DNA of 51,064 nt from positions 1 to 51,064 of the forward strand of contig DAOUCN010000125.1 of NCBI GenBank assembly GCA_034431995.1, given 5' to 3'. A program made the translations under genes and the position numbers. Under the pieces are notes generated by a model. That model had not been told where the DNA came from, searched no databases, and saw nothing but the letters and a program-made list of their open reading frames with translations. This DNA is from Chloroflexota bacterium (lineage in GTDB: Bacteria; Chloroflexota; DTOL01; DAOUCN01). Shown here piece after piece: positions 2,861 through 49,543 of this stretch (position 1 is the first letter of the stretch; each line of letters starts with the position of its first letter).

Positions 2861-3211
2861 TTACGCCTGGTGGTTCTTGACGACGATGCCCAGGGCCTGG
2901 CACGCCCGGAAGGCGTGGTAGCGGAAGTGGCCCTTGGGGCAGTTGGCGAAGTCCGCGCTGCGGGACAGGGTCACGATGGCGCGGTTGGTACGCGCATCGA
3001 GGCGCCGAAAGGCGTTGCGAGGGAGGGCGTTGGCCCGGATGACGCCGGTGATGGAGGTCTTGAGGGCCTTGGCAGCGGCATCGCCCTTCGTGCTCTCGGG
3101 GCCACGCAAGCCGGTCAGGACATCCCAGAGCTTGGTCTTCTCGCTGTCCTCCACGTCGGGGCTGACGAGGAAGGCGTCAATGGCGTCGAGCATCTCACGG
3201 CTGGTGAGCAT
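2861..3211 (-). CDS. Hypothetical protein (116 aa)
   Basis: ORF 2861..3226 trimmed to the ATG at 3211 behind AAAGGAGA. The track start at 3226 is a TTG. Confidence 0.7.
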   Translation of the reverse strand: MLTSREMLDAIDAFLVSPDVEDSEKTKLWDVLTGLRGPESTKGDAAAKALKTSITGVIRANALPRNAFRRLDARTNRAIVTLSRSADFANCPKGHFRYHAFRACQALGIVVKNHQA

Positions 3212-3239
3212 AGGGTCTCCTTTCAAGAGAACTAGCCTG

Positions 3240-3326
3240 CTAGTGGTTGTACCATCCCGAGATCAGCAGGAAGACCAGCAGGATGGTGTAGATCACGGCT
3301 GCGACACTTCGTTCTCGGTCACTCAC
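3240..3326 (-). CDS. Possible 28-aa single-pass membrane peptide (VSDRERSVAAVIYTILLVFLLISGWYNH)
   Basis: GTG start overlapping a 4-codon mini-ORF that carries the GGGAGG RBS. Below the ORF-track size cutoff; translated by hand. Confidence 0.25.
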   Translation of the reverse strand: MSDRERSVAAVIYTILLVFLLISGWYNH

Positions 3327-3381: not shown

Positions 3382-4644
3382 TCAGTCGGACAGGGGGAGA
3401 GAGCGACCGCTCTTGGTCCCTGCCACGCTGGACAACCGCCGCTTGGGACGCGGGGAGTCCAATGCGTAGTTTGGCGAGGCGAAGCAGAGCTCTTCGAGCA
3501 GGCTGGCGTACTTCTTGGCGTGCCGCTTGGTCATGGGTGGGGTGTAACAGCCCGTCTCCAGGACACGCACGGCCATGATCTCGCCAGGGAGGTAGCGCTC
3601 ACGGCACCACTTGGCAGAGAGTTCTGCGAGGTCACGGCCACAGAAGAGGCAGCCGGTGAGCTCAACCAGGGAGTAGTAGACGCCACAACTCTGACAGACC
3701 TGACAGCCATCGAGGCCGTTGAGGATCTGGAGGGACTTCTGGCGCACCTTTATGCTCCCGAACACCTTCCAGGGCAGGTGCCGACCCCTGATGCTGGCGG
3801 TTCCTCGTGGTGTGTCGGTGCCCTTCCCCTTGGAACCGCTGCTGTACTGGGTGGAGTAGGGCTTCATAGGGGACGCGCAGGCCATGGGTCCCGTGTAAGC
3901 GGTGAAGATGCGGTCGGAGAAGGCCAGCGTGGTGTCGGTGGTGCAGAGCATGGCATTGCCGTCCACATAGTACAGCCTGCGGTTCTCCAGTGAGGCGTAG
4001 GTCTCGATGTGGAAGCCAGCGAGACGAGCCGCAGAGAGCAGGGAGGACTCGGTGGAGGCCCAGACGACAGCGAAGGGCTTCTTGCCGAAACGGCCACCAC
4101 CACCGAGACCTTTGCCGTAGAACAGCTGGGCGACGGTCAGCTGCCCGTGGTACATTCGGCACAGGTAGGTGCGGAGGGGGTTGCGCTGGTCCATGTACTC
4201 GATGGCGCCGTAGCAGGACACCTCGGAGAGGTCCTTGCCCTCAGCGATGTGGGCGAAGATGTGCTGGGAATCGACATCGAAAGAGCGATTGTGCTGTCGC
4301 TGCAGGCTGTCGTGGTTGTACACGACGCCATTGTGGGCACCAATGATGTGATCGTGGGTGAAGGGGTGGTTGTTGGCGATGACGTGGGCACCAATGGTCT
4401 TGGCTCGTGTGTGGAGCATCATGGCGTGGTAGGCGCCGAAGATGTGGGAGTCGAGACTGTCAGTGAGACGAGTCTCACACTTCAGAATCTCGATGTCGTG
4501 GGCGAAGGGACGCAGGGCAGCGAAGCCCCAGCCATCCGTGCCACGCCGTTCCATTTCGACGGCTACGACCGAGCAGAACACGGGGAACATGGGTGGCGCC
4601 TGCACGAGATTGTCGCGCAGACGGTATCCGAACAGGCCGCACAT
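3382..4644 (-). CDS. Class-II (Ntn, N-terminal Cys) glutamine-amidotransferase-like enzyme with a C-terminal CxxCxxC...CxxC zinc ribbon (420 aa)
   Basis: Begins MCGLFGY. Contains blocks ERRGTDGWG, LHTRAKTIG..NNHPF, GAHNGVVYNH and DVDSQHIF, arranged as in GlmS/PurF-type GATase domains. TAATG coupling to the upstream gene. Confidence 0.8.
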   Translation of the reverse strand: MCGLFGYRLRDNLVQAPPMFPVFCSVVAVEMERRGTDGWGFAALRPFAHDIEILKCETRLTDSLDSHIFGAYHAMMLHTRAKTIGAHVIANNHPFTHDHIIGAHNGVVYNHDSLQRQHNRSFDVDSQHIFAHIAEGKDLSEVSCYGAIEYMDQRNPLRTYLCRMYHGQLTVAQLFYGKGLGGGGRFGKKPFAVVWASTESSLLSAARLAGFHIETYASLENRRLYYVDGNAMLCTTDTTLAFSDRIFTAYTGPMACASPMKPYSTQYSSGSKGKGTDTPRGTASIRGRHLPWKVFGSIKVRQKSLQILNGLDGCQVCQSCGVYYSLVELTGCLFCGRDLAELSAKWCRERYLPGEIMAVRVLETGCYTPPMTKRHAKKYASLLEELCFASPNYALDSPRPKRRLSSVAGTKSGRSLPLSD

Positions 4645-6062
4645 TAGGCTGCCCTCCTTGTGATAAGCCGGCGGGACTCCGTGACAGGCTCCAGCCAGGC
4701 CAATTGTTGGGAGAGAACGCCGCGGATGTCGGGGGACAGGACGTCCGGGATCTCTCCGTGGACAGACGAGTTGATACGATGGCCGCTGTTGTCGGCCTGA
4801 AGGGTGTAGTGCGCCAGTCTCCGGATTCGGGGACCAGACAGGGTTGGCAACGAGTGGGCCTGGTAGAGCTCGTTCCAGCGCAAGGCGATGTAGTTGCGGA
4901 GGATGGGCGGGAGGACCGCCACCAGCTGCTTGAGCCGCTCACAGGTGTAGTGAATACCCTCGGAGGAGAAAATCCGGAGGGTGCTCCAGCTGGGGACGGT
5001 GGCGAAGTTGGGCACGTCAGGGAACAGGGAGTCCAGATCGCTGTCCCGCATGGTGTAGGCGAGGTCTGCGAGGGTCGCCATCAAGGCAGCCCAGCCGAAC
5101 ATGGCCCAGCCACGCAGTTCGCCAGGGTGGATACGGACTTCCATCGTGCCACGGAAGAGCCAGGAGTGGACGTTCAGGGCACGATAGCGGAGATTGTGGC
5201 TCTGGGAGGCCCGGAGACGAGTCAGGGCGGAGGCAGAGATGCCGGTGCCGTACAGGTCAGTGTAGAGGGCACGCTTGGTAACCGCGACACGCTTGGCCAG
5301 GCTGCGATTGATGCGCCGGTCGAAGGCAGGCCCACAGGGCTGGGAGTAGTGGTTGAAGGCTCGTCCAGGGGAAGCGATGAAGAACAGGGCACGCTCCAAC
5401 CTGGCATAGAGCTTGATGTAGCGAGCAGCGGTCAGCCAGTCGAAATCCCGGCAGTCAACGTGACAGTGCATACCGGCGCGTTCGTTGACGACGCCAGCCT
5501 GGGCCTCGAAGGCGTCACCAAGTTGGGTGAGTTGGCTGTACAGGAAGTCGCCAGCGGCAGGGGAGGTGCGAAGCTCGAAGCCCTCGGTAGGGAGGGAGCC
5601 ATCGTGGCCGATGTCACAGCCCCAGCGATCAGCCACCTTGTTGACGGGAGAGGGAGCCACGCGGGGGTGCAGACCGACGCCACAGCACTCGACTTCGACG
5701 GCAGCGAGGCGAGAAGAGGACCAGACCTGGCGATTCTTCAGGCTGTCGGCGTACCAGAAGCGCCCTTCCGCGTCCCCGGTGTGGCAGACGGCCTGGCGGG
5801 AGGGAGGGGTGTCGAGGGGCAGAGCAGGCCAGTGGTCTCGCCAAGAGGGGAGGAGGACACCAGCACAAGTGTGACAAAGGTCCTGGGAGTTGACGACTAC
5901 CAGGGGCGTGTGGGCCGTCAGGCAGCGGTCGCACCGTGCTCCACCGCAGAGCAGGGGAAACTCGGTGTGACAGGCCGGACAGATGTGGCCGTCACACAGC
6001 GCGCTGGCTGGCGTGGGCCGTTGACAGTATTGACAGGGAACGGGTGGAACGACTCTGGGCAT
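4644..6062 (-). CDS. Amidoligase_2-type (glutamine-synthetase/GCS2-like) COOH-NH2 ligase with N-terminal multi-CxxC zinc ribbons (472 aa)
   Basis: Blocks AAVEVECCG, GHDGSLPTEGFELRTSP and GMHCHVD match the E-x-E / D-G-S..E..SP / H-x-H pattern of the family. The first ~75 aa hold four CxxC pairs. Strong RBS AAAGGAGG before the ATG at 6062. Confidence 0.75.
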   Translation of the reverse strand: MPRVVPPVPCQYCQRPTPASALCDGHICPACHTEFPLLCGGARCDRCLTAHTPLVVVNSQDLCHTCAGVLLPSWRDHWPALPLDTPPSRQAVCHTGDAEGRFWYADSLKNRQVWSSSRLAAVEVECCGVGLHPRVAPSPVNKVADRWGCDIGHDGSLPTEGFELRTSPAAGDFLYSQLTQLGDAFEAQAGVVNERAGMHCHVDCRDFDWLTAARYIKLYARLERALFFIASPGRAFNHYSQPCGPAFDRRINRSLAKRVAVTKRALYTDLYGTGISASALTRLRASQSHNLRYRALNVHSWLFRGTMEVRIHPGELRGWAMFGWAALMATLADLAYTMRDSDLDSLFPDVPNFATVPSWSTLRIFSSEGIHYTCERLKQLVAVLPPILRNYIALRWNELYQAHSLPTLSGPRIRRLAHYTLQADNSGHRINSSVHGEIPDVLSPDIRGVLSQQLAWLEPVTESRRLITRRAA

Positions 6063-6086
6063 TTGAACCTCCTTTCTAGGGGATGG

Positions 6087-7640
6087 TCAGACAGGATCAG
6101 TGACGACGATCTGGCCCCTACGAGTGAGACGGCCGGTCGGAGATCTCGCCAGCAGGGCTGTGGGGAGGGGATCAGACGTGATCGTGCCGCGCAGAGTGAC
6201 AGAAGGGCAATCCACGACCAGGTAGGAGATCAGTTCCTCCTCGGTGGCGTGGTTCGAGGACATGGCAGCGAGGAACTGGTCGAGCCGACGGTTGGCGCAC
6301 ACCAGGTGGGCCAGATGAGTGGGGCCAATGTGTTGCAGGCGAGAGTGAAGCTCTCCCTCGTCCAGACTGCGGCTGTGGTCCCAGAAGAGGGTGCGAATCC
6401 AGTTGTGCCAGGTGTAGCGAATCTGGTCGATCTGGTAGGCCGCGCTAAGCAGGGTCTCGAACAGGCGTCTGCTACCCAGGTTGGGGTTGCCCAAGACGGG
6501 ATGTACCCAGTCAGCCCCGCCGTACATGGCGATGGCAAGCCGGAATAGGCGGTGTTCCAGGCGCCAGATGAGCACCGCAACCAGTTCGGCTGGGTGGATG
6601 TGACTGTGCTGTTCGCCGGAAAGCGTCAGTTCGCCAGACGACAGCAGGTAGGCGCAGTATTCGCCGCCGTCAGTCAGCGTGTAGTGCCCCCGCACGAGGG
6701 GGCTGGTAGTGGAAATCTGGCGGGTGGTGCGGGTGACGTTGATGGGCCGCGACGAGTCACCACGGCCCGTCCACTGACGCCAGGTAGCCAGACGATCCCT
6801 GTAGGCGACCGAGGCCGGCACGCCGTACATCAGGAGGGTCATGAAGGGGTGCGTGTTCGACATGGCAGGCCACTGGACGGAATCAGCGGGGAGCGTCCCA
6901 AACTCAGGGACCTCGTAGACATCCCCGAAAGGGTGATGCAGAGGAATGCTGGGAACCAGCCGTTCCCAGGCACGCCGATGCACGACAGAAGCGTTGGTGC
7001 CCTGGTAGCGGAACTGAGGCCACTGCCCCATGCCAATGAACCACTGACGCTGGACGTGCACCGTGCGAGCGTGGTTGACGATGAGCCTGCCAACTTGGCC
7101 AATCACGTCAACCAGGGCTGCCGGCATCGCCGGCCGGCGAGCGGGACGTGCCGGGCGAGCGACGAACCAGGCTGGGTCCTGGGGCAGCAGGTAGAGCTTC
7201 GGGCCCATGTGGCGCAGTAAGCGCGCCGTCCAGTGGGCAGCGGGGACAGCGACCGCGTCATCCGCATTCTGGTTGGCCGGTGTGGCTGCGCGAGGCAGGA
7301 ACACGCCAACAGAACCAGGGATGACAATGCGAGAGAACGCTGCCGGTTCGAGCCACTCGGAGGGGTATCGCTGAGGTTCGAGGGGCCAGGGCAGGAACTC
7401 CGGCTGGTAGCTCTCTGGGATGTACCGGCGGTCCTGGGCATCCCGGAAAGCCTGCACGAAGGCTTCCTGGAGCAGCGCGATCCACGCATTGGGAGCATGG
7501 AGATAGGCACGCGGGTAGTAGGCCCGCTGCCAGTTGACGTTGCGCCCGATGTAGTCCACGAGGTAGTGAAGCACCAGCTCCCGCGTATCGGCACGCAGAG
7601 TAGGCGAGCCAGGCTGGACGTAGCCGATGAGATTAGGCAT
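6087..7640 (-). CDS. Large Trp-rich hypothetical protein (517 aa); first long gene of the amidoligase operon
   Basis: ORF 6087..7796 trimmed to the ATG at 7640 (MPNLIGY...) behind GGAGGG. No domain recognised. Confidence 0.75.
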   Translation of the reverse strand: MPNLIGYVQPGSPTLRADTRELVLHYLVDYIGRNVNWQRAYYPRAYLHAPNAWIALLQEAFVQAFRDAQDRRYIPESYQPEFLPWPLEPQRYPSEWLEPAAFSRIVIPGSVGVFLPRAATPANQNADDAVAVPAAHWTARLLRHMGPKLYLLPQDPAWFVARPARPARRPAMPAALVDVIGQVGRLIVNHARTVHVQRQWFIGMGQWPQFRYQGTNASVVHRRAWERLVPSIPLHHPFGDVYEVPEFGTLPADSVQWPAMSNTHPFMTLLMYGVPASVAYRDRLATWRQWTGRGDSSRPINVTRTTRQISTTSPLVRGHYTLTDGGEYCAYLLSSGELTLSGEQHSHIHPAELVAVLIWRLEHRLFRLAIAMYGGADWVHPVLGNPNLGSRRLFETLLSAAYQIDQIRYTWHNWIRTLFWDHSRSLDEGELHSRLQHIGPTHLAHLVCANRRLDQFLAAMSSNHATEEELISYLVVDCPSVTLRGTITSDPLPTALLARSPTGRLTRRGQIVVTDPV

Positions 7641-7729
7641 CAGTCCCTCCTGTGGGTGTGCTTGATGCCTTCCCAACAGCTGGGGCAGCTGAAGAAGGCA
7701 CGAAGCAAGGTGAGCAGCGATTGGATCAT
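7640..7729 (-). CDS. Small 29-aa CxxC peptide (MIQSLLTLLRAFFSCPSCWEGIKHTHRRD)
   Basis: Translated by hand. Strong RBS AAAGGAGG before the ATG at 7729. Its TGA overlaps the ATG of the 517-aa gene (TGATG). Confidence 0.45.
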   Translation of the reverse strand: MIQSLLTLLRAFFSCPSCWEGIKHTHRRD

Positions 7730-7876
7730 GGAACCTCCTTTGTGATTGTGTGGATGGATGAGGTGCGGCGCACCGCCATTGTAGCGCGGCGGCCACTACT
7801 ACGTCTCAAGACGCAGCTCTCCCATCCTCTCTCCCTCCCTTCTAGCCGCCGGGGACGGGAGGGCTGGAGCAGGAGT

Positions 7877-7919
7877 TCCGTATACTGCTCTCTCCGTATA
7901 CTGGACGATCCGTATACTG
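7877..7919. promoter_or_regulatory. Three direct repeats of TCCGTATACTG with 16-bp periodicity (operator-like array)
   Basis: Copies at 7877-7887, 7893-7903 and 7909-7919. Located in the divergent intergenic region, between element copy b and the first leftward gene. Confidence 0.6.
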
Positions 7920-7926
7920 GCAAGAC

Positions 7927-7966
7927 CCTTCGCGCTTCGCGCTCAGGGGGCCTGGGGTTTGGGCTC
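7927..7966 (-). repeat. Dispersed bipartite element, copy b (head of the leftward block)
   Basis: Minus-strand reading GAGCCCAAACCCCAGGCCCCCTGAGCGCGAAGCGCGAAGG; hairpin GCGC-GAA-GCGC. Confidence 0.85.
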
Positions 7967-8040
7967 CTCTCTCTCTCTCTCTCTCTAATATGTATATGTG
8001 TTGTGTGTGTGTGTGTGTGTGTGTGTGGAGAGAGAGAGAG
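7967..8040. repeat. Microsatellite cluster: (CT)10 7967-7986, alternating AT/GT stretch, (TG)13 8002-8027, (GA)6 8028-8040
   Basis: Read directly. The (CT) and (GA) runs are mutually complementary, so they form inverted-repeat arms around the TG tract. Confidence 0.95.
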
Positions 8041-8085
8041 GGAGGTCCCCGGCCCCCTACTTGCACAGGGGGGCTGAATTAAAGG

Positions 8086-8197: not shown

Positions 8198-8458
8198 ATG
8201 TACGGCGGATTCGAGTGTCCCGAGTGTGGATCGCACGAGCACACGGTCGTGGAGGAGGGTCCGAGCGCCAACTGCCTCGCGCATCTGAAGGAACAAATCC
8301 GACTGCTGAGGGTCACGCGCACCGCGACGCCGCTCGCGTATGCGGACGCGGTTCTTCTAATGTTGCGCGCCCTCCGCACCGGACCGTCCGCGTCGGCCAT
8401 CGTCGAGCGGTTGAATAAACGCGGCGTGTTCTTCGTCCGAGTTGACAAGCCGGGTTGA
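8198..8458 (+). CDS. Small hypothetical protein with an N-terminal CPEC..H.H motif (86 aa)
   Basis: ORF track; ATG preceded by AGGAGGA. First gene of the rightward block. Confidence 0.7.
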   Translation: MYGGFECPECGSHEHTVVEEGPSANCLAHLKEQIRLLRVTRTATPLAYADAVLLMLRALRTGPSASAIVERLNKRGVFFVRVDKPG

Positions 8459-8492
8459 GTCGGCTAACATTACAAGCGAAAGGAGAGAGGTC

Positions 8493-8864
8493 ATGCCCCG
8501 CACCGCAATTCGGAAGCGGCTCTATGGCGTCACGCAGACGCAGTTGGAAGAGGTCTATCAGCTGCGTGAGCAGGCCAAGGAGCTCAAGGCTCATCTTCGG
8601 GTGATCGAGGAGCTCAAGGCTCATCTTCGGGTGATCGAGGATCTCGTAGGAGAGCGAGAGGAGATGATCGTGGATCTCCTCACACACGAGGCATCGGTCG
8701 AGCCCGGCCCCATCACCCCAAACCCCCGCGAGGAGGCTCGTCGGGCACCCAAGTGGAAGGAGGCGTACATCGAGGCATTGGGATTCGAGGCAGCACAGAA
8801 GGTGATCGAAGCCACGAAGCCGCATGTGCGCGTCGTGCTCGATCTGATTCGTACCCACAACTAA
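8493..8864 (+). CDS. Coiled-coil-like hypothetical protein (123 aa) carrying an in-frame 10-codon tandem duplication
   Basis: ORF 8442..8864 trimmed to the ATG at 8493 behind AAAGGAGAGAGG. ELKAHLRVIE occurs twice in tandem. Confidence 0.7.
   Translation: MPRTAIRKRLYGVTQTQLEEVYQLREQAKELKAHLRVIEELKAHLRVIEDLVGEREEMIVDLLTHEASVEPGPITPNPREEARRAPKWKEAYIEALGFEAAQKVIEATKPHVRVVLDLIRTHN
8581..8640 (+). repeat. Perfect 2 x 30-bp tandem duplication inside a CDS
   Basis: AGCTCAAGGCTCATCTTCGGGTGATCGAGG at 8581-8610 and again at 8611-8640. Confidence 0.95.
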
Positions 8865-13331: not shown

Positions 13332-13760
13332 ATGTCTGCTGACGATGGCTTGGTTCACTACCCGTCTGGCGCCACCCGGAGCGCCGACGCTGACGACTTC
13401 CGCTACGATCTCCTGCCCCTCTGCGCGCTCGCCCGGTGGGCGCAGCGCATGGGGCACGGTGCCAAGACGCACGGCGATCACAACTGGAAGAAAGGCTTCC
13501 CGGCTGGCGTCATCGAGAACCACCTGATGCGCCACCTAGTCATGTGGATGGAAGGCGACCGGAGCGACGACCACCTGGCAGCGATCATGTGCAACGTCGC
13601 CTTCCTGATACACTTCGAGGAGACCACGAAGCCGACTCGCGCTCCACAGATCCCGTCTCCGCGCTGCCCAATGGTGTACAGTCCCGATCCCGAGGGGCCT
13701 CTTCAGTATTGCGTCAAGTACGATGGACATACTGACGAGCATGCGTGGGGGAAGCCATGA
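13332..13760 (+). CDS. DUF5664-like protein (dATP/dGTP diphosphohydrolase N-terminal domain type, MazG-like all-alpha) (142 aa)
   Basis: RYDLLPLCALARWAQRMGHGAKTHGDHNWKKG....HLMRHLVMWMEGD..DDHLAAIMCNVAFL follows the family pattern (LLP..AL...GA.KYG..NW.KG...RH...W..G...D.L.H...N..FL) as I recall it. Confidence 0.6.
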   Translation: MSADDGLVHYPSGATRSADADDFRYDLLPLCALARWAQRMGHGAKTHGDHNWKKGFPAGVIENHLMRHLVMWMEGDRSDDHLAAIMCNVAFLIHFEETTKPTRAPQIPSPRCPMVYSPDPEGPLQYCVKYDGHTDEHAWGKP

Positions 13761-14038
13761 GCGGCCGGAACGAGGTCCGTCAGGCGGGCATCATCTTCAC
13801 CGAGGACGAGATCAACCTGCTGCTCGACTGTGTGAAGCACCGCATGACGAAGATGCAACGCATGTCCCGCTGGCACCGACTCACGCAGAACCTGGTCAAC
13901 TCCCACGAGTACGTCCGTCTGCTCAAGCTGCGGACCATGCTATCGCTCGGGCTGGTCAGTAGCCAATTGGCTAAATCTCCGCTCGGCGTTCCGCCTCGCG
14001 GGGCTCGGGGTTTGAGCTCCCCACCGGAGGACGCATGA
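13757..14038 (+). CDS. Hypothetical protein (93 aa)
   Basis: ORF 13745..14038 trimmed to the ATG at 13757 (ATGA overlap). Its 3' end runs through element copy c. Confidence 0.55.
   Translation: MSGRNEVRQAGIIFTEDEINLLLDCVKHRMTKMQRMSRWHRLTQNLVNSHEYVRLLKLRTMLSLGLVSSQLAKSPLGVPPRGARGLSSPPEDA
13982..14020 (-). repeat. Dispersed bipartite element, copy c (inverted relative to local transcription)
   Basis: Minus-strand reading GGAGCTCAAACCCCGAGCCCCGCGAGGCGGAACGCCGAG; hairpin GGCG-GAA-CGCC. Confidence 0.85.
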
Positions 14039-16494
14039 AGCCCGTCAAGCCCATCGGCCCCCTGAATGCTCGCATCGCCCTGATCGGGGAGGCGCCGGGC
14101 AAGTGGGAGGCCCTGCGTGGCGAGCCCTTCGTGGGGGCAGCGGGCCAGAAGCTGGACACCTGGCTGCGCGAGTTAGGGGTCAACCGCCAGGACCTGTACA
14201 TCTGCAACGTCTTGGACTTCAAGCCGGCCGACACCGCCGCCAAGAACAATGACCTATCCTCGGTCTCGAAGGCCGAGATGGAGGCCGGGATCACCCGCCT
14301 GCATGAGCGCATGGCCGCGCTAGAGGACCCCTACGTCCTAGTGCCGACGGGGAACACGGCGCTGAAGGCGCTGACGGGGCTGAACGGGATCACCAAGTAC
14401 CGGGGGTCCATCGTCAGCTACGAGGACCTGAATGGGCGCACGATCAAGGTGATCCCCACTCTCCATCCGGCGAGCATCTTCTACGACGCGCATCCGGCCT
14501 GGGCCGAGAAGCACATCCGGATCGACTGGCGGCGCATCGTCGAGGAGTCCAAGACCCGCGAGATTGTGGTCCCGGAACGCCACCACCTGGTCTTCCCCAC
14601 GGAGAAGGAGATCAAGCAGTTCTACACAGAGGCCAAAAATGCGGAGATGATGTCCATCGACATCGAGACGCATAACGGGGCTATACTGTGTGTCGGATTC
14701 AGCTACGACCCGTCGTTCAGCCTCACGTTGCCGCTGCGCGACCGCCGCATGAAGCACAACCAGTCGTACATGCGGGAGTGGATTCACCGGCTGTGCTCGC
14801 TCGACACGGCGAAGGTGATGCAGAACGGGTTCTACGACGCCTATTGGCTCTGGATGAAGGAGCACATCTGGGTCGTGAACTACCTGTGGGACTGCAAGGC
14901 CATGCACCACTGTCTGGACCCCGTGGACCAGCACAGCCTGGCCTACATGCAGTCGGTCTACACGCTGGAGCCGTACCACAAGGACGAGGCCAAGGACGCC
15001 GACAAGAAGAACCAGTACATCAACGACATCGAGGCCTTGCACGTTTACTGCGGGCTGGACAACTGCGTGCAGCGGGAACTGGCCGGCACCTTCAAGGGGA
15101 TGCTGGAGGAGCAGGGGCGGCTGGAGTTCTACATGCAGCACTACGCGGCGATGTTCGAGCCCCTGCTGCACATGATGATCGGGGGTATCCGGACGGCGAG
15201 CGAGGACCGGCTGATGCGGCACGCGCAGTCGCAGGCCCGGACCATCGAGATCCAGGACCAGCTGACGGCGCTGATCGGATACTCGATCCACGCCAAGAAG
15301 GACCTGTCCCCGAAGAAGCTGGCGCAGGCCCTGTACGAGACGCTGAAGCTGCCCAAGCAGTTCAAGAAGGGCACCAAGACGGCCGACGAGGTGGCGTTGC
15401 GGAAGCTGCTCCTCTACGCCCAGGAGAAGCTGCGGAACGTGAACAACCCCCGGTCTCGCAACCGGGACCCGGAGCACTGGCAGAAGGTCATCACGGTGCT
15501 GGAGCTCTTGCTGGAGAGCCGGGGCACGACCAAGGTGCGGGCCTTCGTGGACCAGCGGAAGGCCGACAAGGACGGCTATCTGCGCTGCGAGTTGGGGTTC
15601 ACCACCGAGTCGGGGCGCCTGGAGTCCAAGAAGAACCCGCTGGGGACCGGCCAGAACCTGCAGAACATCGACCGCCGGGCCAGGGACACGTTCATCCCGG
15701 ACGAGGGGCACATCTTCCTGGAAGTGGACATGTCGCAGATCGAGTCCCGGATCATCTTCTGCCTGACTGGGGACGAGAAGCTGATCGAACTGGCCCGCAC
15801 GAAGCCGTGGGAGTTCGACCAGCACACCTACAACGCAAGCCGGCTGTTCGGGGTGCCCGAGGCCGAGGTCACCAAGGAGCAGCGGCACATCGGGAAGATC
15901 GCCGTGCATGGCGCCCAGCGCGGGATGCGAGGGAAGCGGCTGTCCGAGAACCTGCTGAAGCAGGGGACGGTGAAGACCCCGAAGGAGTGCGACGAACTGG
16001 TGGACCGCTACTTCGCGGAGTTCCCGGCGCTCAACGACTACTTCGCCAGCATTCGGAAGAAGGTCCTGACAGATCGCTACCTGCAGAACAGCTGGGGCCG
16101 GATCTGGGACGTGCGCTGGGAGTGGCTCTCGGATGATCTGTACCGCCGGGCGTACAGCTTCCTGCCCCAGTCCGAGACGGCCGATCTGCTGAACCAGTGG
16201 GGGCTGATCCCCCTGCACGATCACCTGTCGATCCGCCAGGGCGAGACGCCATGGCCTCGGCTGGTGATGCAGATCCATGACGCGCTGTTGGTCTCCACCC
16301 CGCCACAATACGCCTTCGAGCTCGCGGTGTTCCTGCAGCGTCACCTGGAGCGGACTCGCACGCTGACCAACGGGGTCACCCTGAGCGTCCCAGTGACGTT
16401 CAAGATCGGGCGCACCTGGAAGGGCGACTACGAGTTCAACCAGCTACCGTCCGAGGAGGAGTTCAGTGCCGCAGTTGCCAAGCTATCCGCCTGA
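14035..16494 (+). CDS. Family-A DNA polymerase with an N-terminal family-4-like uracil-DNA-glycosylase domain and a 3'-5' exonuclease domain (819 aa)
   Basis: UDG part: GEAPG...GEPFVGAAGQKL...LHPAS. Exonuclease motifs: SIDIETH, QNGFYDAYWL, YCGLDNC. Polymerase motifs: A VDMSQIESR, B RHIGKIAVHGAQRGM, C QIHDALLV. Confidence 0.85.
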   Translation: MKPVKPIGPLNARIALIGEAPGKWEALRGEPFVGAAGQKLDTWLRELGVNRQDLYICNVLDFKPADTAAKNNDLSSVSKAEMEAGITRLHERMAALEDPYVLVPTGNTALKALTGLNGITKYRGSIVSYEDLNGRTIKVIPTLHPASIFYDAHPAWAEKHIRIDWRRIVEESKTREIVVPERHHLVFPTEKEIKQFYTEAKNAEMMSIDIETHNGAILCVGFSYDPSFSLTLPLRDRRMKHNQSYMREWIHRLCSLDTAKVMQNGFYDAYWLWMKEHIWVVNYLWDCKAMHHCLDPVDQHSLAYMQSVYTLEPYHKDEAKDADKKNQYINDIEALHVYCGLDNCVQRELAGTFKGMLEEQGRLEFYMQHYAAMFEPLLHMMIGGIRTASEDRLMRHAQSQARTIEIQDQLTALIGYSIHAKKDLSPKKLAQALYETLKLPKQFKKGTKTADEVALRKLLLYAQEKLRNVNNPRSRNRDPEHWQKVITVLELLLESRGTTKVRAFVDQRKADKDGYLRCELGFTTESGRLESKKNPLGTGQNLQNIDRRARDTFIPDEGHIFLEVDMSQIESRIIFCLTGDEKLIELARTKPWEFDQHTYNASRLFGVPEAEVTKEQRHIGKIAVHGAQRGMRGKRLSENLLKQGTVKTPKECDELVDRYFAEFPALNDYFASIRKKVLTDRYLQNSWGRIWDVRWEWLSDDLYRRAYSFLPQSETADLLNQWGLIPLHDHLSIRQGETPWPRLVMQIHDALLVSTPPQYAFELAVFLQRHLERTRTLTNGVTLSVPVTFKIGRTWKGDYEFNQLPSEEEFSAAVAKLSA

Positions 16495-47158: not shown

Positions 47159-47499
47159 CACTCAGTCTCCTTCTTGTTCGCTGCGATGGCTCGATCGATC
47201 TTGTGCTCGATCCGTTCTAGCTGTTTGACGACGTGGGGTAGGGCGCCTTGGATCTCTGCGATCTTCTCGCCGTGTGCGGCTCCGGTCTTGGTCAGTTCGT
47301 TGATCGAGTTGTTGACGTTGGTCAGCCATAGCACACAGCCAGAGCTAATCAAAGCAGCAATGATGCCAAGCACCCACTTGAGGGCCGGGTCCATGCTCGG
47401 GGGCGGCGGGAACTCGTGGTTGTGCTCGTCGAGAACAGTCAGACGTTTACCATGCGGCGTGTGCTCGCTACCGTTGAGTGATTCCGCCGTGTCTATCAT
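47158..47499 (-). CDS. Membrane-anchored coiled-coil protein (113 aa)
   Basis: ORF track; TM segment WVLGIIAALISSGCVLWL followed by a helical tail. Confidence 0.6.
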   Translation of the reverse strand: MIDTAESLNGSEHTPHGKRLTVLDEHNHEFPPPPSMDPALKWVLGIIAALISSGCVLWLTNVNNSINELTKTGAAHGEKIAEIQGALPHVVKQLERIEHKIDRAIAANKKETE

Positions 47500-48109
47500 C
47501 CCACTCCCGCATTCGCCGCTCGATGTGTGCCGGTCCCGCTCCTGACTGGCGCAAGTAGCGTGCCAGTGCGTCTCGCTCTGCGTTCTTTAGAGCAGGTGCC
47601 GTCCGTTTGGGCAAGAGGGAACACGCCGAGGCTAGGGCATCGACGAGGTCTACGGTCTGGCCCATCGGGTGGGAGCGGAGCTCAGCCAAGAGCTCGACCT
47701 GGCTATCCTGCACGAACAGGCGGCCCTGCGCTATGATGGGCTGGAGGATCGAGCGGTTGCGGAAGTACTTGTCGATCTTGTTGGACTGCGGGACGCCCTG
47801 GAGGTTCAAGCGCTGGTTGGTGAAGCGGGCCTCGCGCCGGAGGGAGCCGCCGAAGAGGGAAGCCAGGCCGTTCTCCTCGATGCCGAAGATGATGGGCCTG
47901 AACTGGATGTTGATGCGGAAGATGTTCTCGATGATCCGGTCGGTCGAGGCGCGCTCGGCCCAGGTGTTCAGGACGAAGATCCGCTGCAGCCAGTCCTGAC
48001 CGACGGTCACGACGGCGGTGCGGGCGCGGGTCTTCTTCACGGTCTGCTTCCCGCCAGCGGGGTCGCAGAACGAGACGATGTCCGCGAGGCTACTGACGGG
48101 CTGTTCCAT
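47468..48109 (-). CDS. terL: Terminase large subunit, C-terminal RNase-H-like nuclease half as a separate ORF (213 aa)
   Basis: Acidic triad context FCDPAGG, FGIEENG and VDLVDAL in the usual order. Confidence 0.75.
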   Translation of the reverse strand: MEQPVSSLADIVSFCDPAGGKQTVKKTRARTAVVTVGQDWLQRIFVLNTWAERASTDRIIENIFRINIQFRPIIFGIEENGLASLFGGSLRREARFTNQRLNLQGVPQSNKIDKYFRNRSILQPIIAQGRLFVQDSQVELLAELRSHPMGQTVDLVDALASACSLLPKRTAPALKNAERDALARYLRQSGAGPAHIERRMREWDDRHGGITQR

Positions 48110-48392
48110 GTCGTGCGCGGCGGATCACACGCACTCGCCGAATGCAGCCGTGCGGGATGGCGAAGTAGCCGTTGGCCTCGTCGTGGCCGCGTCCAGCATC
48201 GCCCAGGAGGAGCGACAGGACGAGGTCCTTCTTGGTGGAGCCGATGATGTAGCCGGCTGCGCGGCAAGCCTGAGAGGTGGCGCGAGAGGCTTCCCCGCCG
48301 TCGGTCCAGGCGCTGTAGACGGCCGGATCGTCGAACTCGACTTCGATGATGGAGAACTGAGGCAGTTTGGGACCCTTGGTCAGTTTGGTCAT
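48090..48392 (-). CDS. Hypothetical 100-aa ORF nested between the two terminase halves
   Basis: ATGA overlap with the ATPase-half stop and a 20-nt overlap with the nuclease-half start. Protein-like composition. No domain recognised. Confidence 0.5.
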   Translation of the reverse strand: MTKLTKGPKLPQFSIIEVEFDDPAVYSAWTDGGEASRATSQACRAAGYIIGSTKKDLVLSLLLGDAGRGHDEANGYFAIPHGCIRRVRVIRRARHGTARQ

Positions 48393-49543
48393 GCGGACCG
48401 TCCTTTCCGGTGTTTGAAGAACTCGTCTCGTCCCAGTAGACGATCATACGAGTGCTTCGTCAAGCGCTGTCCCCGCAGGGGCTTGTGCTCGGCGGAAGGG
48501 GTAAAACGGGCGCGGTCCTCGGTCAGGGCGTCGAGCGGGGACTCCTCGAAAACCAGTTGATTATCCAGGACTTGGAAGCGACGCAGCAGCGTCATGTCGA
48601 AGTCCACGAGGTCGGGGTCCCCGGCGGAGTTCATGTAGAGGAGGGGAAACATGGTCCGCATCTCGCGCTGCAGGCGCTGCAGGGACTCTAGGGAGAATCG
48701 CTCGGGGAAGATGGGCTTGCCGTCCTCGATGGCCGCGCGACGCATGACCTCGACGGAATCGTCGGTGTCCATCAGCTGCTCGTAGATGTCTCCGATGGCC
48801 CAGCGCGTCCCAGTGATGATCTCCAGGGACTTGTCGGGATCATCCATCAGGGCGCGGCTGGTGGCATGCCAGTCCACGGTAGACTGCATGATGGTGGGGG
48901 AGTTGGCCGACTCCAAGTCGATCAGGTCGTCGAAGTAGTGAACGTTGAAGTGGTAGCCGGCGATGGTGCCGCCCACGCCGATGGTCTCGACCGAGGCCTC
49001 CTTGAAGATCTCCGGACGGGGCAGGAGGATGCGCTCAGCGTTCCAGTATTTGGCCTGGCGCTTCGGCTCGTCCCAAACGCGGTCGGGCCAGAGGGCCTTC
49101 AGAATCTGGTTGCTCTCGTAGACCATCATGATCTCGGAGAGGGTGGAGCGCGAGAGGTCGGCTGTCTTGGAGCCGAGGAGGATGCGGGTCGAGCGGCCAT
49201 CGGAGTGGCCGAGGTTGCCGACGCCGTCGGGGAACCAGACGTTGGCGCCGTCCGGCTGGATCAGCAGGTGAATGACGGCCGCCTTGCAGATGGTCGTCTT
49301 CAGGTGATCGCGGGGCATCAGCAGGAGTTTCCGGTAGGGCGGAACCCTCTGGAGCCAGTTGCAGACGGGGAGATGGAGGGAGGGCGAGAGGAGGCTGTAG
49401 CCCATCACCCCCTTGGCGAAGACGAAGAGGTTCGCCTCAGCCTGCTTCTTGAAGTCCGCGACGAACTGCCCGGCCTGTGTACTACCAGCCTGACGAACCT
49501 GGCCCGTGCGCGCGTCGAGGACCAGTTCCCTGGCGTCCATCAC
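48389..49543 (-). CDS. terL: Terminase large subunit, N-terminal ATPase half (384 aa; start GTG 49543 or ATG 49540)
   Basis: Walker-A-like MPRDHLKTT, Walker B HYFDDLID, coupling motif ITGTRW, and FPERFSLESLQRL...LYMNS. Confidence 0.8.
   Translation of the reverse strand: MMDARELVLDARTGQVRQAGSTQAGQFVADFKKQAEANLFVFAKGVMGYSLLSPSLHLPVCNWLQRVPPYRKLLLMPRDHLKTTICKAAVIHLLIQPDGANVWFPDGVGNLGHSDGRSTRILLGSKTADLSRSTLSEIMMVYESNQILKALWPDRVWDEPKRQAKYWNAERILLPRPEIFKEASVETIGVGGTIAGYHFNVHYFDDLIDLESANSPTIMQSTVDWHATSRALMDDPDKSLEIITGTRWAIGDIYEQLMDTDDSVEVMRRAAIEDGKPIFPERFSLESLQRLQREMRTMFPLLYMNSAGDPDLVDFDMTLLRRFQVLDNQLVFEESPLDALTEDRARFTPSAEHKPLRGQRLTKHSYDRLLGRDEFFKHRKGRSA

Follow-up and report, generated by a model that had tools for sequence, protein, structure and literature searches.

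An Amidoligase_2 gene beside a gene for a class-II glutamine amidotransferase (GATase)-like protein forms a cassette of LUZ24-, PaP3-, tf-, phiEco32-, 7-11-, RIO-1- and CW02-like podoviruses, and the same two genes are adjacent in the DNA analyzed here, contig DAOUCN010000125.1 from a Chloroflexota bacterium assembly. This whole stretch, called the window, has ~64% GC and is phage-like, a complete contig of 51,064 bp. The cassette has already been described comparatively in LUZ24-, phiEco32- and RIO-1-like podoviruses (PMC4819975, PMC5498523, PMC11945000) and also appears in PMC3890496, PMC3517423, PMC10580990 and PMC11945000; the summaries in PMC4819975, PMC5498523, PMC11945000 and PMC3890496 credit it to Iyer et al. 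2009 and Hardies et al. 2013. It has been read as an operon for γ-glutamyl amide linkages (PMC4819975, PMC5498523), as a "peptidoglycan modification cassette" with a proposed block to superinfection in phiEco32, 7-11, PA11, tf, MR299-2, LUZ24, PaP3 and CW02 (PMC5498523), and as auxiliary genes of nitrogen metabolism in a Planctomycetes-associated phage with the same gene set (PMC10945688). The pair is among the most widespread "known unknowns" in phage genomes, with a spread that takes in LUZ24-like therapeutic Pseudomonas phages, phiEco32-like coliphages, marine podoviruses and Arthrobacter phages. More than 15 years after it was first noticed, no reported substrate was found in the literature, and a full-text search located no biochemical characterization of the cassette, which upholds the statement in an earlier reading of this DNA from its letters (the sequence-only reading) that no substrate has been demonstrated.

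The sequence-only reading considered a four-gene block of the window, consisting of the ligase, the GATase-like protein, an orphan and a micro-open reading frame (micro-ORF), the best candidate there for an uncharacterized biochemical system (Table 1). The block is no new discovery but the reduced core of the described phage cassette, a divergent, minimal member with lineage-specific accessory genes. Like the podovirus cassette, it sits in the non-structural arm of a podovirus-like genome. The window differs in that no COOH-NH2_lig (PF14395) second ligase, ATP-grasp protein or GGCT/GGACT γ-glutamyl cyclotransferase was detected among its ORFs scanned with Pfam and PHROGs, and in the addition of the orphan, the micro-ORF and a 121-aa protein that are not seen elsewhere beyond its close relatives. 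The best reading of the block, held with about even confidence, is a minimal two-enzyme core that would make and cleave (or use) a γ-glutamyl-type amide on a probably macromolecular target. The window adds little new on the pair itself, which will be no surprise to a specialist. This minimal two-enzyme version could be the simplest system for finding the substrate, and a cultivable phage with the cassette would be better still for testing.

Cellular precedents exist for a glutamine synthetase-fold ligase that adds a γ-glutamyl group and a GATase-fold hydrolase that then removes or uses it, namely EgtA/EgtC, PuuA/PuuD and γ-glutamylmethylamide synthetase/N-methylglutamate synthase. Their ligase-then-Cys-hydrolase logic on a γ-glutamyl amide is the same as that proposed for the window pair, and EgtC is a class-II GATase like the window protein, whereas PuuD belongs to class I. 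All three differ from the block in being cellular small-molecule pathways, in having no zinc ribbons, and in a similarity that is at the superfamily level. PafA/Dop pupylation resembles the block in that a glutamine synthetase-fold ligase forms a γ-glutamyl isopeptide that a partner deamidates or removes, but Dop is a PafA paralogue and not an N-terminal nucleophile (Ntn) GATase, and the window has no gene for a Pup-like tag. MurT/GatD likewise joins an ATP-dependent ligase and a glutaminase in a two-protein complex, whose substrate is a cell-wall precursor, but it combines a Mur-ligase fold with a class-I GATase and neither is homologous to the window proteins. The YbdK/GCS2 carboxylate-amine ligase (1r8g, 1tt4) is the best structural match of the low-confidence ligase model described below and differs in having no zinc module and no GATase partner.

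The Amidoligase_2 protein

Pfam matches were judged against curated cut-offs of 22 bits for PF12224 and 27 bits for PF13522. The 472-aa protein matches PF12224 over residues 162–316 (50.1 bits, E = 4.6e-13), as the sequence-only reading had proposed, and it matches PHROG amidoligase families at 7.7e-12 and 8.8e-8, with phrog_7469 ("amidoligase") among them. An alignment of the window protein with 10 diverse phage amidoligases (11 sequences) has invariant columns at E123, E125, D154, E163, G171, H199, H201, D203, D206, R234, N297, T306, E308, R310 and W324. All family-invariant catalytic residues are kept, with E123, E125, D154, E163, H199, H201, R234, R292, N297, E308 and R310 at invariant or near-invariant positions of the family, and the acidic, His and Arg positions are retained in 76–78 of 78 non-redundant viral homologues. 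The ExE, D/E...E, HxH, R and ExR elements constitute the metal, ATP and acyl-phosphate set of glutamine synthetase-fold ligases, and the ligase residues correspond to what we take to be E129/E131, E212/E220, H269/H271, R339 and E357/R359 of glutamine synthetase. By these sequence features the protein is an intact Amidoligase_2 enzyme.

The AlphaFold2 model of the ligase, made from 4 sequences, is of low confidence (pLDDT 49.5, pTM 0.53). Foldseek comparison of this low-confidence model ranks YbdK 1r8g at the top (E 0.027, probability 0.82, TM ~0.3), followed by 1tt4 and then by glutamine synthetases, a match that is only supportive. Sequence and profile searches of the PDB with the ligase returned no match to its core, and the only profile hits were to FYVE-type zinc fingers (E ≥ 0.3). 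The close relatives of the window are the metagenomic contigs L001, L004 and L005, and counts of four relatives include the window itself. At the C terminus (4644–4658), the tetrapeptide RRAA is identical in all 4 related ligases.

The class-II GATase-like amidohydrolase

The assignment of the 420-aa protein to the class-II GATases also holds, with a match to PF13522 (GATase_6) of 36 bits and E = 8.5e-9. A phmmer search aligned it to the glutaminase domain of GlmS (1xff) with E = 4e-5 and ~25% identity over 90 residues. The N terminus reads MCGLFGY and places the catalytic Cys immediately after the initiator Met. The catalytic positions align as R34 = R26, R80 = R73, T83 = T76 and N105-G106 = N98-G99 of 1xff, and D125 corresponds to GlmS D123 as matched by eye from the VDS motif, just beyond the phmmer-aligned stretch. 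M1-C2-G3, R34, R80, T83, N105-G106 and D125 are each at least 90% conserved in 38 GATase homologues, and therefore the pocket should hold the free α-amino and α-carboxylate groups of glutamine or of a γ-glutamyl moiety. By its sequence, the protein is an intact Cys1 Ntn amidohydrolase.

All motifs quoted for the two enzymes by the sequence-only reading are found in the translations (AAVEVECCG, GHDGSLPTEGFELRTSP and GMHCHVD in the ligase; MCG, ERRGTDGWG, LHTRAKTIG..NNHPF and GAHNGVVYNH in the GATase). For both enzymes the hidden Markov model matches are significant and the catalytic positions align, and no biochemical characterization of the four-gene block was found.

The GATase has no fused C-terminal synthase or acceptor domain of the GlmS, PurF, AsnB or GltB type, and residues ~230–420 match no family. 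In architecture the GATase is similar to the stand-alone YafJ/EgtC-type amidohydrolases; PF13230 scores weakly (18.6 bits, cut-off 23), as does the EgtC family of NCBIfam (TIGR03442). The retention of all glutamine-binding and catalytic residues of true glutaminase domains also agrees with a two-subunit glutamine-dependent amidotransferase, in which the GATase would release ammonia from glutamine and the ligase would amidate an ATP-activated carboxylate on the target. One example would be a peptidoglycan stem-peptide carboxylate as in MurT/GatD, with an altered envelope that might, for instance, exclude superinfecting phages. Glutamine synthetase itself uses ammonia, and MurT/GatD is a two-protein precedent in which MurT has a Cys4 zinc ribbon; to our knowledge, however, no glutamine synthetase-fold enzyme with a GATase partner is known. 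A class-II glutaminase is normally an N-terminal fusion to its synthase, but here the C-terminal half is an unassigned zinc-ribbon region. Cell-wall modification is the function favored in the literature (PMC5498523, PMC10580990, PMC11945000). A glutamine-dependent amidotransferase is proposed as a tentative, minority possibility, and if true it would be the first glutamine synthetase-fold enzyme fed ammonia by a class-II glutaminase subunit.

Conservation of the pair across phages

The ligase-GATase pairing noted by the sequence-only reading is real, with a 1-nt overlap of the two genes in the window and an adjacency that recurs in other phages. Eighty IMG/VR loci with a GATase relative were sampled; 78 yielded a GATase ORF, and 68 loci are non-redundant. 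An amidoligase ORF is present in 74 of the 78, nearly always directly adjacent and on the same strand, and the stop and start codons of ligase and GATase often overlap in viral loci. The 68 non-redundant loci are arranged as GATase-ligase (31), ligase-GATase (16), ligase-GATase-x-ligase (14) or GATase alone (7), the bare ligase-then-GATase pair of the window being the arrangement found in 16/68. Searches with tblastn located the ligase and GATase together in Arthrobacter, Vibrio (Zobellviridae), Pseudomonas (LUZ24-like) and uncultured phages, with 23–37% identity over the cores to the isolate-phage members, and other metagenomic contigs with GATase homologues have an Amidoligase_2 gene immediately upstream. 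The ligase and GATase are obligate neighbors across very diverse phages. As a block of four genes the locus is less general: the enzyme pair is widespread, but the orphan and the micro-ORF are confined to close relatives.

Strict adjacency with stop/start overlap is what genes of stoichiometric amidotransferase complexes typically show, and it counts toward the ammonia-supplying alternative. A GGACT/AIG2 γ-glutamyl(amine) cyclotransferase (PF06094, 1.7e-13) is encoded in 28/68 non-redundant loci, which indicates γ-glutamyl-amine chemistry, and this frequent co-occurrence fits γ-glutamyl removal better than ammonia supply. In Firmicutes, Aig2 is reported to take the place of the GATase, a further point against ammonia supply.

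Two amidoligase genes flank the GATase in a subset of marine viral contigs, the IMG/VR loci L026-L036, L039, L042-L043, L051, L053, L055, L062 and L072. In these two-ligase contigs, a conserved ~99-aa gene whose product has a weak DUF5312 score occupies the ~300 bp that precede the second ligase. A fimbrial modification enzyme of Klebsiella called "amidoligase-like" (PMC13419641) is an ATP-grasp protein and has no bearing on the pair.

Zinc modules

The CxxC pairs of the ligase lie at residues 10, 28, 44 and 63, and the zinc module, which consists of these 4 pairs, 2 further Cys and 2 His, is kept in all 4 relatives. CxxC motifs of the GATase lie at 314, 317 and 332, and C317, C320, C332 and C335 are invariant in the 4 relatives. 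The sequence-only reading regarded these ribbons as unusual, and they are instead the family norm: at least 2 CxxC motifs are present in 72/78 non-redundant GATase-linked phage amidoligases, with a median of 6. The CxxC arrays of those ligases are all N-terminal to the catalytic core, with none inside or after it, and are built in tandem from a unit of CxxC, 13–18 residues and CxxC. C-terminal CxxC pairs occur in 27/68 and 22/38 GATase homologues in two homologue sets. No Pfam domain matches the zinc modules, which give weak LIM, B-box and FYVE-like scores.

The near-universal N-terminal ribbon arrays suggest docking of the enzymes on a macromolecule or on one another, and they point to a macromolecular target rather than to bulk metabolism. 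The regularity of the CxxC arrays is the most useful by-product of this analysis. A macromolecular target, if this is right, would speak against the popular annotation as an "auxiliary nitrogen-metabolism gene". That annotation has the pair boosting host nitrogen, glutamine or glutathione metabolism and was proposed for the Planctomycetes-associated phage (PMC10945688) and for OM43 phages (PMC10580990). The window enzymes carry phage-typical zinc-ribbon arrays and are very distant from housekeeping ones, the ligase having no PDB sequence hit and the GATase being ~25% identical to GlmS; a search of 185,579 species genomes returned no close homologue, the ligase giving one marginal hit there. 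With free glutamate and ammonia, the pair would be a futile cycle. A role in auxiliary metabolism is very improbable.

Proposed chemistry

In the preferred reading, a two-enzyme core acting on a γ-glutamyl-type amide, the ligase would convert a carboxylate into an activated acyl phosphate with ATP and then join it to an amine. The carboxylate would most likely be the γ-carboxyl of glutamate, by analogy with other glutamine synthetase-fold ligases. The amidohydrolase would cleave the γ-amide of the ligase product or a close analogue, because its pocket is expected to fit a glutamine or γ-glutamyl moiety, and the cleavage might edit or recycle the product or release the amine. The ligase and GATase may act as a complex. 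The N-terminal double zinc ribbon of the ligase and the C-terminal ribbon of the GATase would dock the enzymes together or to a macromolecular target, for which a cell-wall precursor and a host protein are candidates, and the orphan, the micro-ORF and the 121-aa protein would be lineage-specific accessory or targeting factors. The "conjugation and trimming" activity proposed by the sequence-only reading is chemically reasonable but is one of at least two such readings, the other being the supply of glutamine-derived ammonia.

Several points weigh against the two-enzyme γ-glutamyl core. Each enzymatic step is a prediction, for every member of the family, and glutamate is put forward as the carboxylate donor by analogy. 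The mapping of ligase residues onto glutamine synthetase was made by residue numbering and not by alignment, the structural model of the ligase is poor (pLDDT 49.5), and a complex of the two proteins is as conjectural as the function of their zinc ribbons. A writer and an eraser in one operon would be wasteful unless the hydrolase substrate differs. Because GGACT, ATP-grasp and a second ligase were not detected, the chemistry of the window may be simpler or different.

Accessory genes and close relatives

Close relatives of the ligase were found in 3 metagenomic contigs only among 5.8 billion clustered proteins and in none of IMG/VR, and the whole block, compared at the DNA level with 50,697 phage records, gave no match. 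The syntenic order in the relatives is micro-ORF (where present), orphan, ligase, GATase and 121-aa protein. A conserved divergent control region separates these genes from a replication arm that encodes a PDDEXK nuclease, a Sak4-like ATPase and a uracil-DNA glycosylase (UDG)-PolA fusion. Two gene calls of L004 are truncated; the zinc-ribbon N terminus of its ligase and the MCG start of its GATase are present in the DNA. The ligase and GATase are 42–53% identical to those of the relatives, and the 121-aa protein is as conserved as the enzymes (50–58% identity in L001 and L004). The 121-aa protein belongs to no Pfam or PHROG family, has no match in the 50,697 phage records, and is possibly a fifth member of the block, beyond the genes listed in the sequence-only reading.

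The orphan was described as having no recognizable domain, and searches of Pfam, PHROGs, NCBIfam and PADLOC returned no match. It is 16–24% identical to its syntenic counterparts, and an exhaustive HMMER search of 1.84 billion representatives found the L001 counterpart as its only true relative. The mechanical ORF extends to a GTG at 7796, and the ATG start at 7640 is supported because 3 homologues begin MSNLV.YV.P. The protein has a pI of 9.3, and its description as Trp-rich stands in part, since 3.3% Trp exceeds the 1.6% in other large window genes but is a modest enrichment. A long acidic Asp/Glu tail ends the protein in 3 relatives but not in the window. The AlphaFold2 model of the orphan (pLDDT 34.6) is unusable. 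Comparison with hhalign relates the orphan neither to the ligase family nor to the long N-terminal extension of the MW202637 amidoligase. The micro-ORF encodes the motif C-x2-C-x2-GIKH-x-H (a CCHH knuckle) and is found at the same place in L001 and L005 and absent in L004. A defence or anti-defence annotation of the block was rejected because there were no PADLOC hits. The orphan, micro-ORF and 121-aa gene are a lineage-specific part of the operon, common to the 3 metagenomic relatives only. A joint function of the orphan and micro-ORF with the enzymes is a conjecture from operon position and synteny in 4 genomes.

The orphan is evolving at a much higher rate than the enzymes, a frequent trait of host-interaction proteins, and this agrees with a pupylation-like tagging of proteins. 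The ligase would put glutamate or a glutamate-terminated peptide on lysines of a host or phage protein, the GATase would mature or remove the tag, and the fast-evolving orphan would be an adaptor or target. PafA is a glutamine synthetase-fold ligase, and the canonical substrate of GGACT, which is common in related loci, is ε-(γ-glutamyl)-lysine. The zinc-ribbon arrays score weakly against the protein-binding fingers LIM, B-box and FYVE. No small tag protein with a C-terminal Gln or Glu is present: the micro-ORF product ends RRD (GRLP and WRTT in relatives) and is missing from L004. The orphan is absent from all other amidoligase-GATase loci, and a protein substrate is hypothetical. Protein tagging is the original prediction of Iyer et al. 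2009 as cited in PMC10945688 and PMC4431377, and for this locus it is doubtful. In an elaborated form that has a similarly slim chance, the zinc-ribbon arrays would serve target recognition and the block would be a protein γ-glutamylation machine, with the orphan, the micro-protein and the 121-aa protein steering the ligase to a host protein and the amidohydrolase editing or reversing the mark. Such a machine, if real, would give phages a pupylation-like modification for host takeover that has yet to be described in them.

Genome context and DNA modification

The phage is distant from all isolates, and its DNA polymerase is ≤28% identical to any in the 50,697 phage records. This family-A polymerase (14035–16494, + strand) has an N-terminal UDG domain (PF03167, 3.7e-24; PF00476, 5.6e-40). 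A 142-aa protein encoded at 13332–13760 (+ strand) matches dGTP_diPhyd_N (PF18909, 7.5e-19), the N-terminal domain of MazZ-type dATP/dGTP diphosphohydrolases. The scanned window ORFs showed no PurZ-like gene.

The UDG domain of PolA and the MazZ-like dGTP_diPhyd_N protein are compatible with a DNA or nucleotide hypermodification, in which the amide made by the ligase would sit on a modified base or nucleotide, with the GATase supplying ammonia or trimming the adduct, and zinc ribbons can bind nucleic acid. We know of no amide-type base modification in LUZ24 or phiEco32, which are well studied and bear the cassette. The UDG-PolA fusion type, for which a recent structural description in phages exists, is reported in phages such as SP-15 and YerA41 that have hypermodified thymidines (bioRxiv 10.1101/2025.03.26.645540). 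In phage DNA, 5-carboxymethylcytosine is decorated by ATP-dependent amide ligases, some of which have class-II glutaminase domains (PMC12783734). CmoY is AsnB-like, however, and not an Amidoligase_2 protein. The scanned window ORFs include no methyltransferase, CmoA/CmoX, thymidylate synthase-like hydroxymethylase, 5-hydroxymethyl-dU DNA kinase or DpdA. Because no enzyme for adding a carboxyl or amine handle was found among these ORFs, a DNA-hypermodification pathway is quite unlikely.

The contig ends (1–109 and 50979–51064) share ~86 nt with one mismatch, a stretch that includes a 17-bp tandem repeat (TCACAGCGACCGAGGTG, 4.7 copies at 30–109). The shared ends indicate the terminal redundancy of a complete genome, as direct terminal repeats or from a circular assembly. 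The large terminase seems to be split on the minus strand (47468–49543), with a 384-aa ORF (48389–49543) equivalent to positions 266–524 of PHROG 38, a 213-aa ORF (47468–48109) equivalent to positions 548–719, and a 100-aa ORF (48090–48392) between them. The split could reflect an intervening element, a frameshift or an assembly error.

Locus layout and control region

The four minus-strand ORFs listed by the sequence-only reading are present at exactly those coordinates (Table 1). Their translational coupling was claimed throughout and is seen as 1-nt overlaps at the micro-ORF/orphan (TGATG) and ligase/GATase (TAATG) junctions, but the orphan and ligase are separated by a 24-nt gap. This spacer holds an AGGAGG ribosome-binding site, and the same junction is an overlap or a 3-nt separation in the 3 relatives. 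No terminator-like site was found between the operon genes, and no sigma-70-type promoter was found for the operon strand. The label "early operon" is overstated, having been drawn from position alone.

Table 1. Positions of the block, its domains and flanking elements in the window
Feature	Coordinates	Strand	Basis or remark
Micro-ORF, 29 aa	7640..7729	-	ORF listing; own ribosome-binding site; stop overlaps orphan ATG
Orphan, 517 aa from ATG	6087..7640	-	Basic protein; lineage-specific, fast-evolving
Predicted Amidoligase_2 ligase, 472 aa	4644..6062	-	Glutamine synthetase-like carboxylate-amine ligase; PF12224, phrog_7469
Ligase N-terminal Cys-rich zinc module, residues 10-66	5865..6035	-	CxxC pairs
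Ligase catalytic core, residues ~118-330	5073..5711	-	Pfam and PHROG matches and invariant columns fall there
Predicted Cys1 Ntn class-II GATase-like amidohydrolase, 420 aa	3382..4644	-	PF13522; C-terminal half non-synthase
GATase C-terminal zinc ribbon, C314/C317/C320 ... C332/C335	3640..3705	-	CxxC pairs
Basic protein, 121 aa, directly downstream of GATase	2861..3226	-	Synteny with relatives
Repeat array, 3 exact CAGTATACGG direct repeats, 16-bp period	7878..7919	-	Operator- or promoter-like in sequence

The repeat array described upstream of the block is real, with 3 exact CAGTATACGG copies ~150 nt before the first start codon of the operon. A triple GTATACG array is also found upstream of the homologous operons in L001, L004 and L005 (3/3 relatives), and the array at 7878–7919 appears operator- or promoter-like. 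A perfect palindrome CCGTATACGG with the same core as these repeats lies at 1648–1657, between genes in a more distal part of the same minus-strand operon. The divergent intergenic region (7945–8065) contains (TC)n, (CA)16 and (GA)n tracts that fold as a long single-stranded DNA hairpin (-26 kcal/mol, z = -8.0), and CA and GA microsatellites recur at the equivalent place in L001, L004 and L005. The possibility that a leader RNA such as a glutamine riboswitch precedes the operon was rejected, as no Rfam family reached its gathering score; the miRNA-like Rfam scores in this region are noise because of the (TC)n/(GA)n hairpin.

The GATase and 121-aa genes have between them a 28-aa ORF (3240–3326, - strand) whose hydrophobic core, VAAVIYTILLVFLLISGW, is transmembrane-like. 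On the other side of the control region, a 30-bp tandem repeat (8578–8645, + strand; 2.3 copies, 97% matches) lies inside a 140-aa ORF (8442–8864) and duplicates the peptide ELKAHLRVIE.

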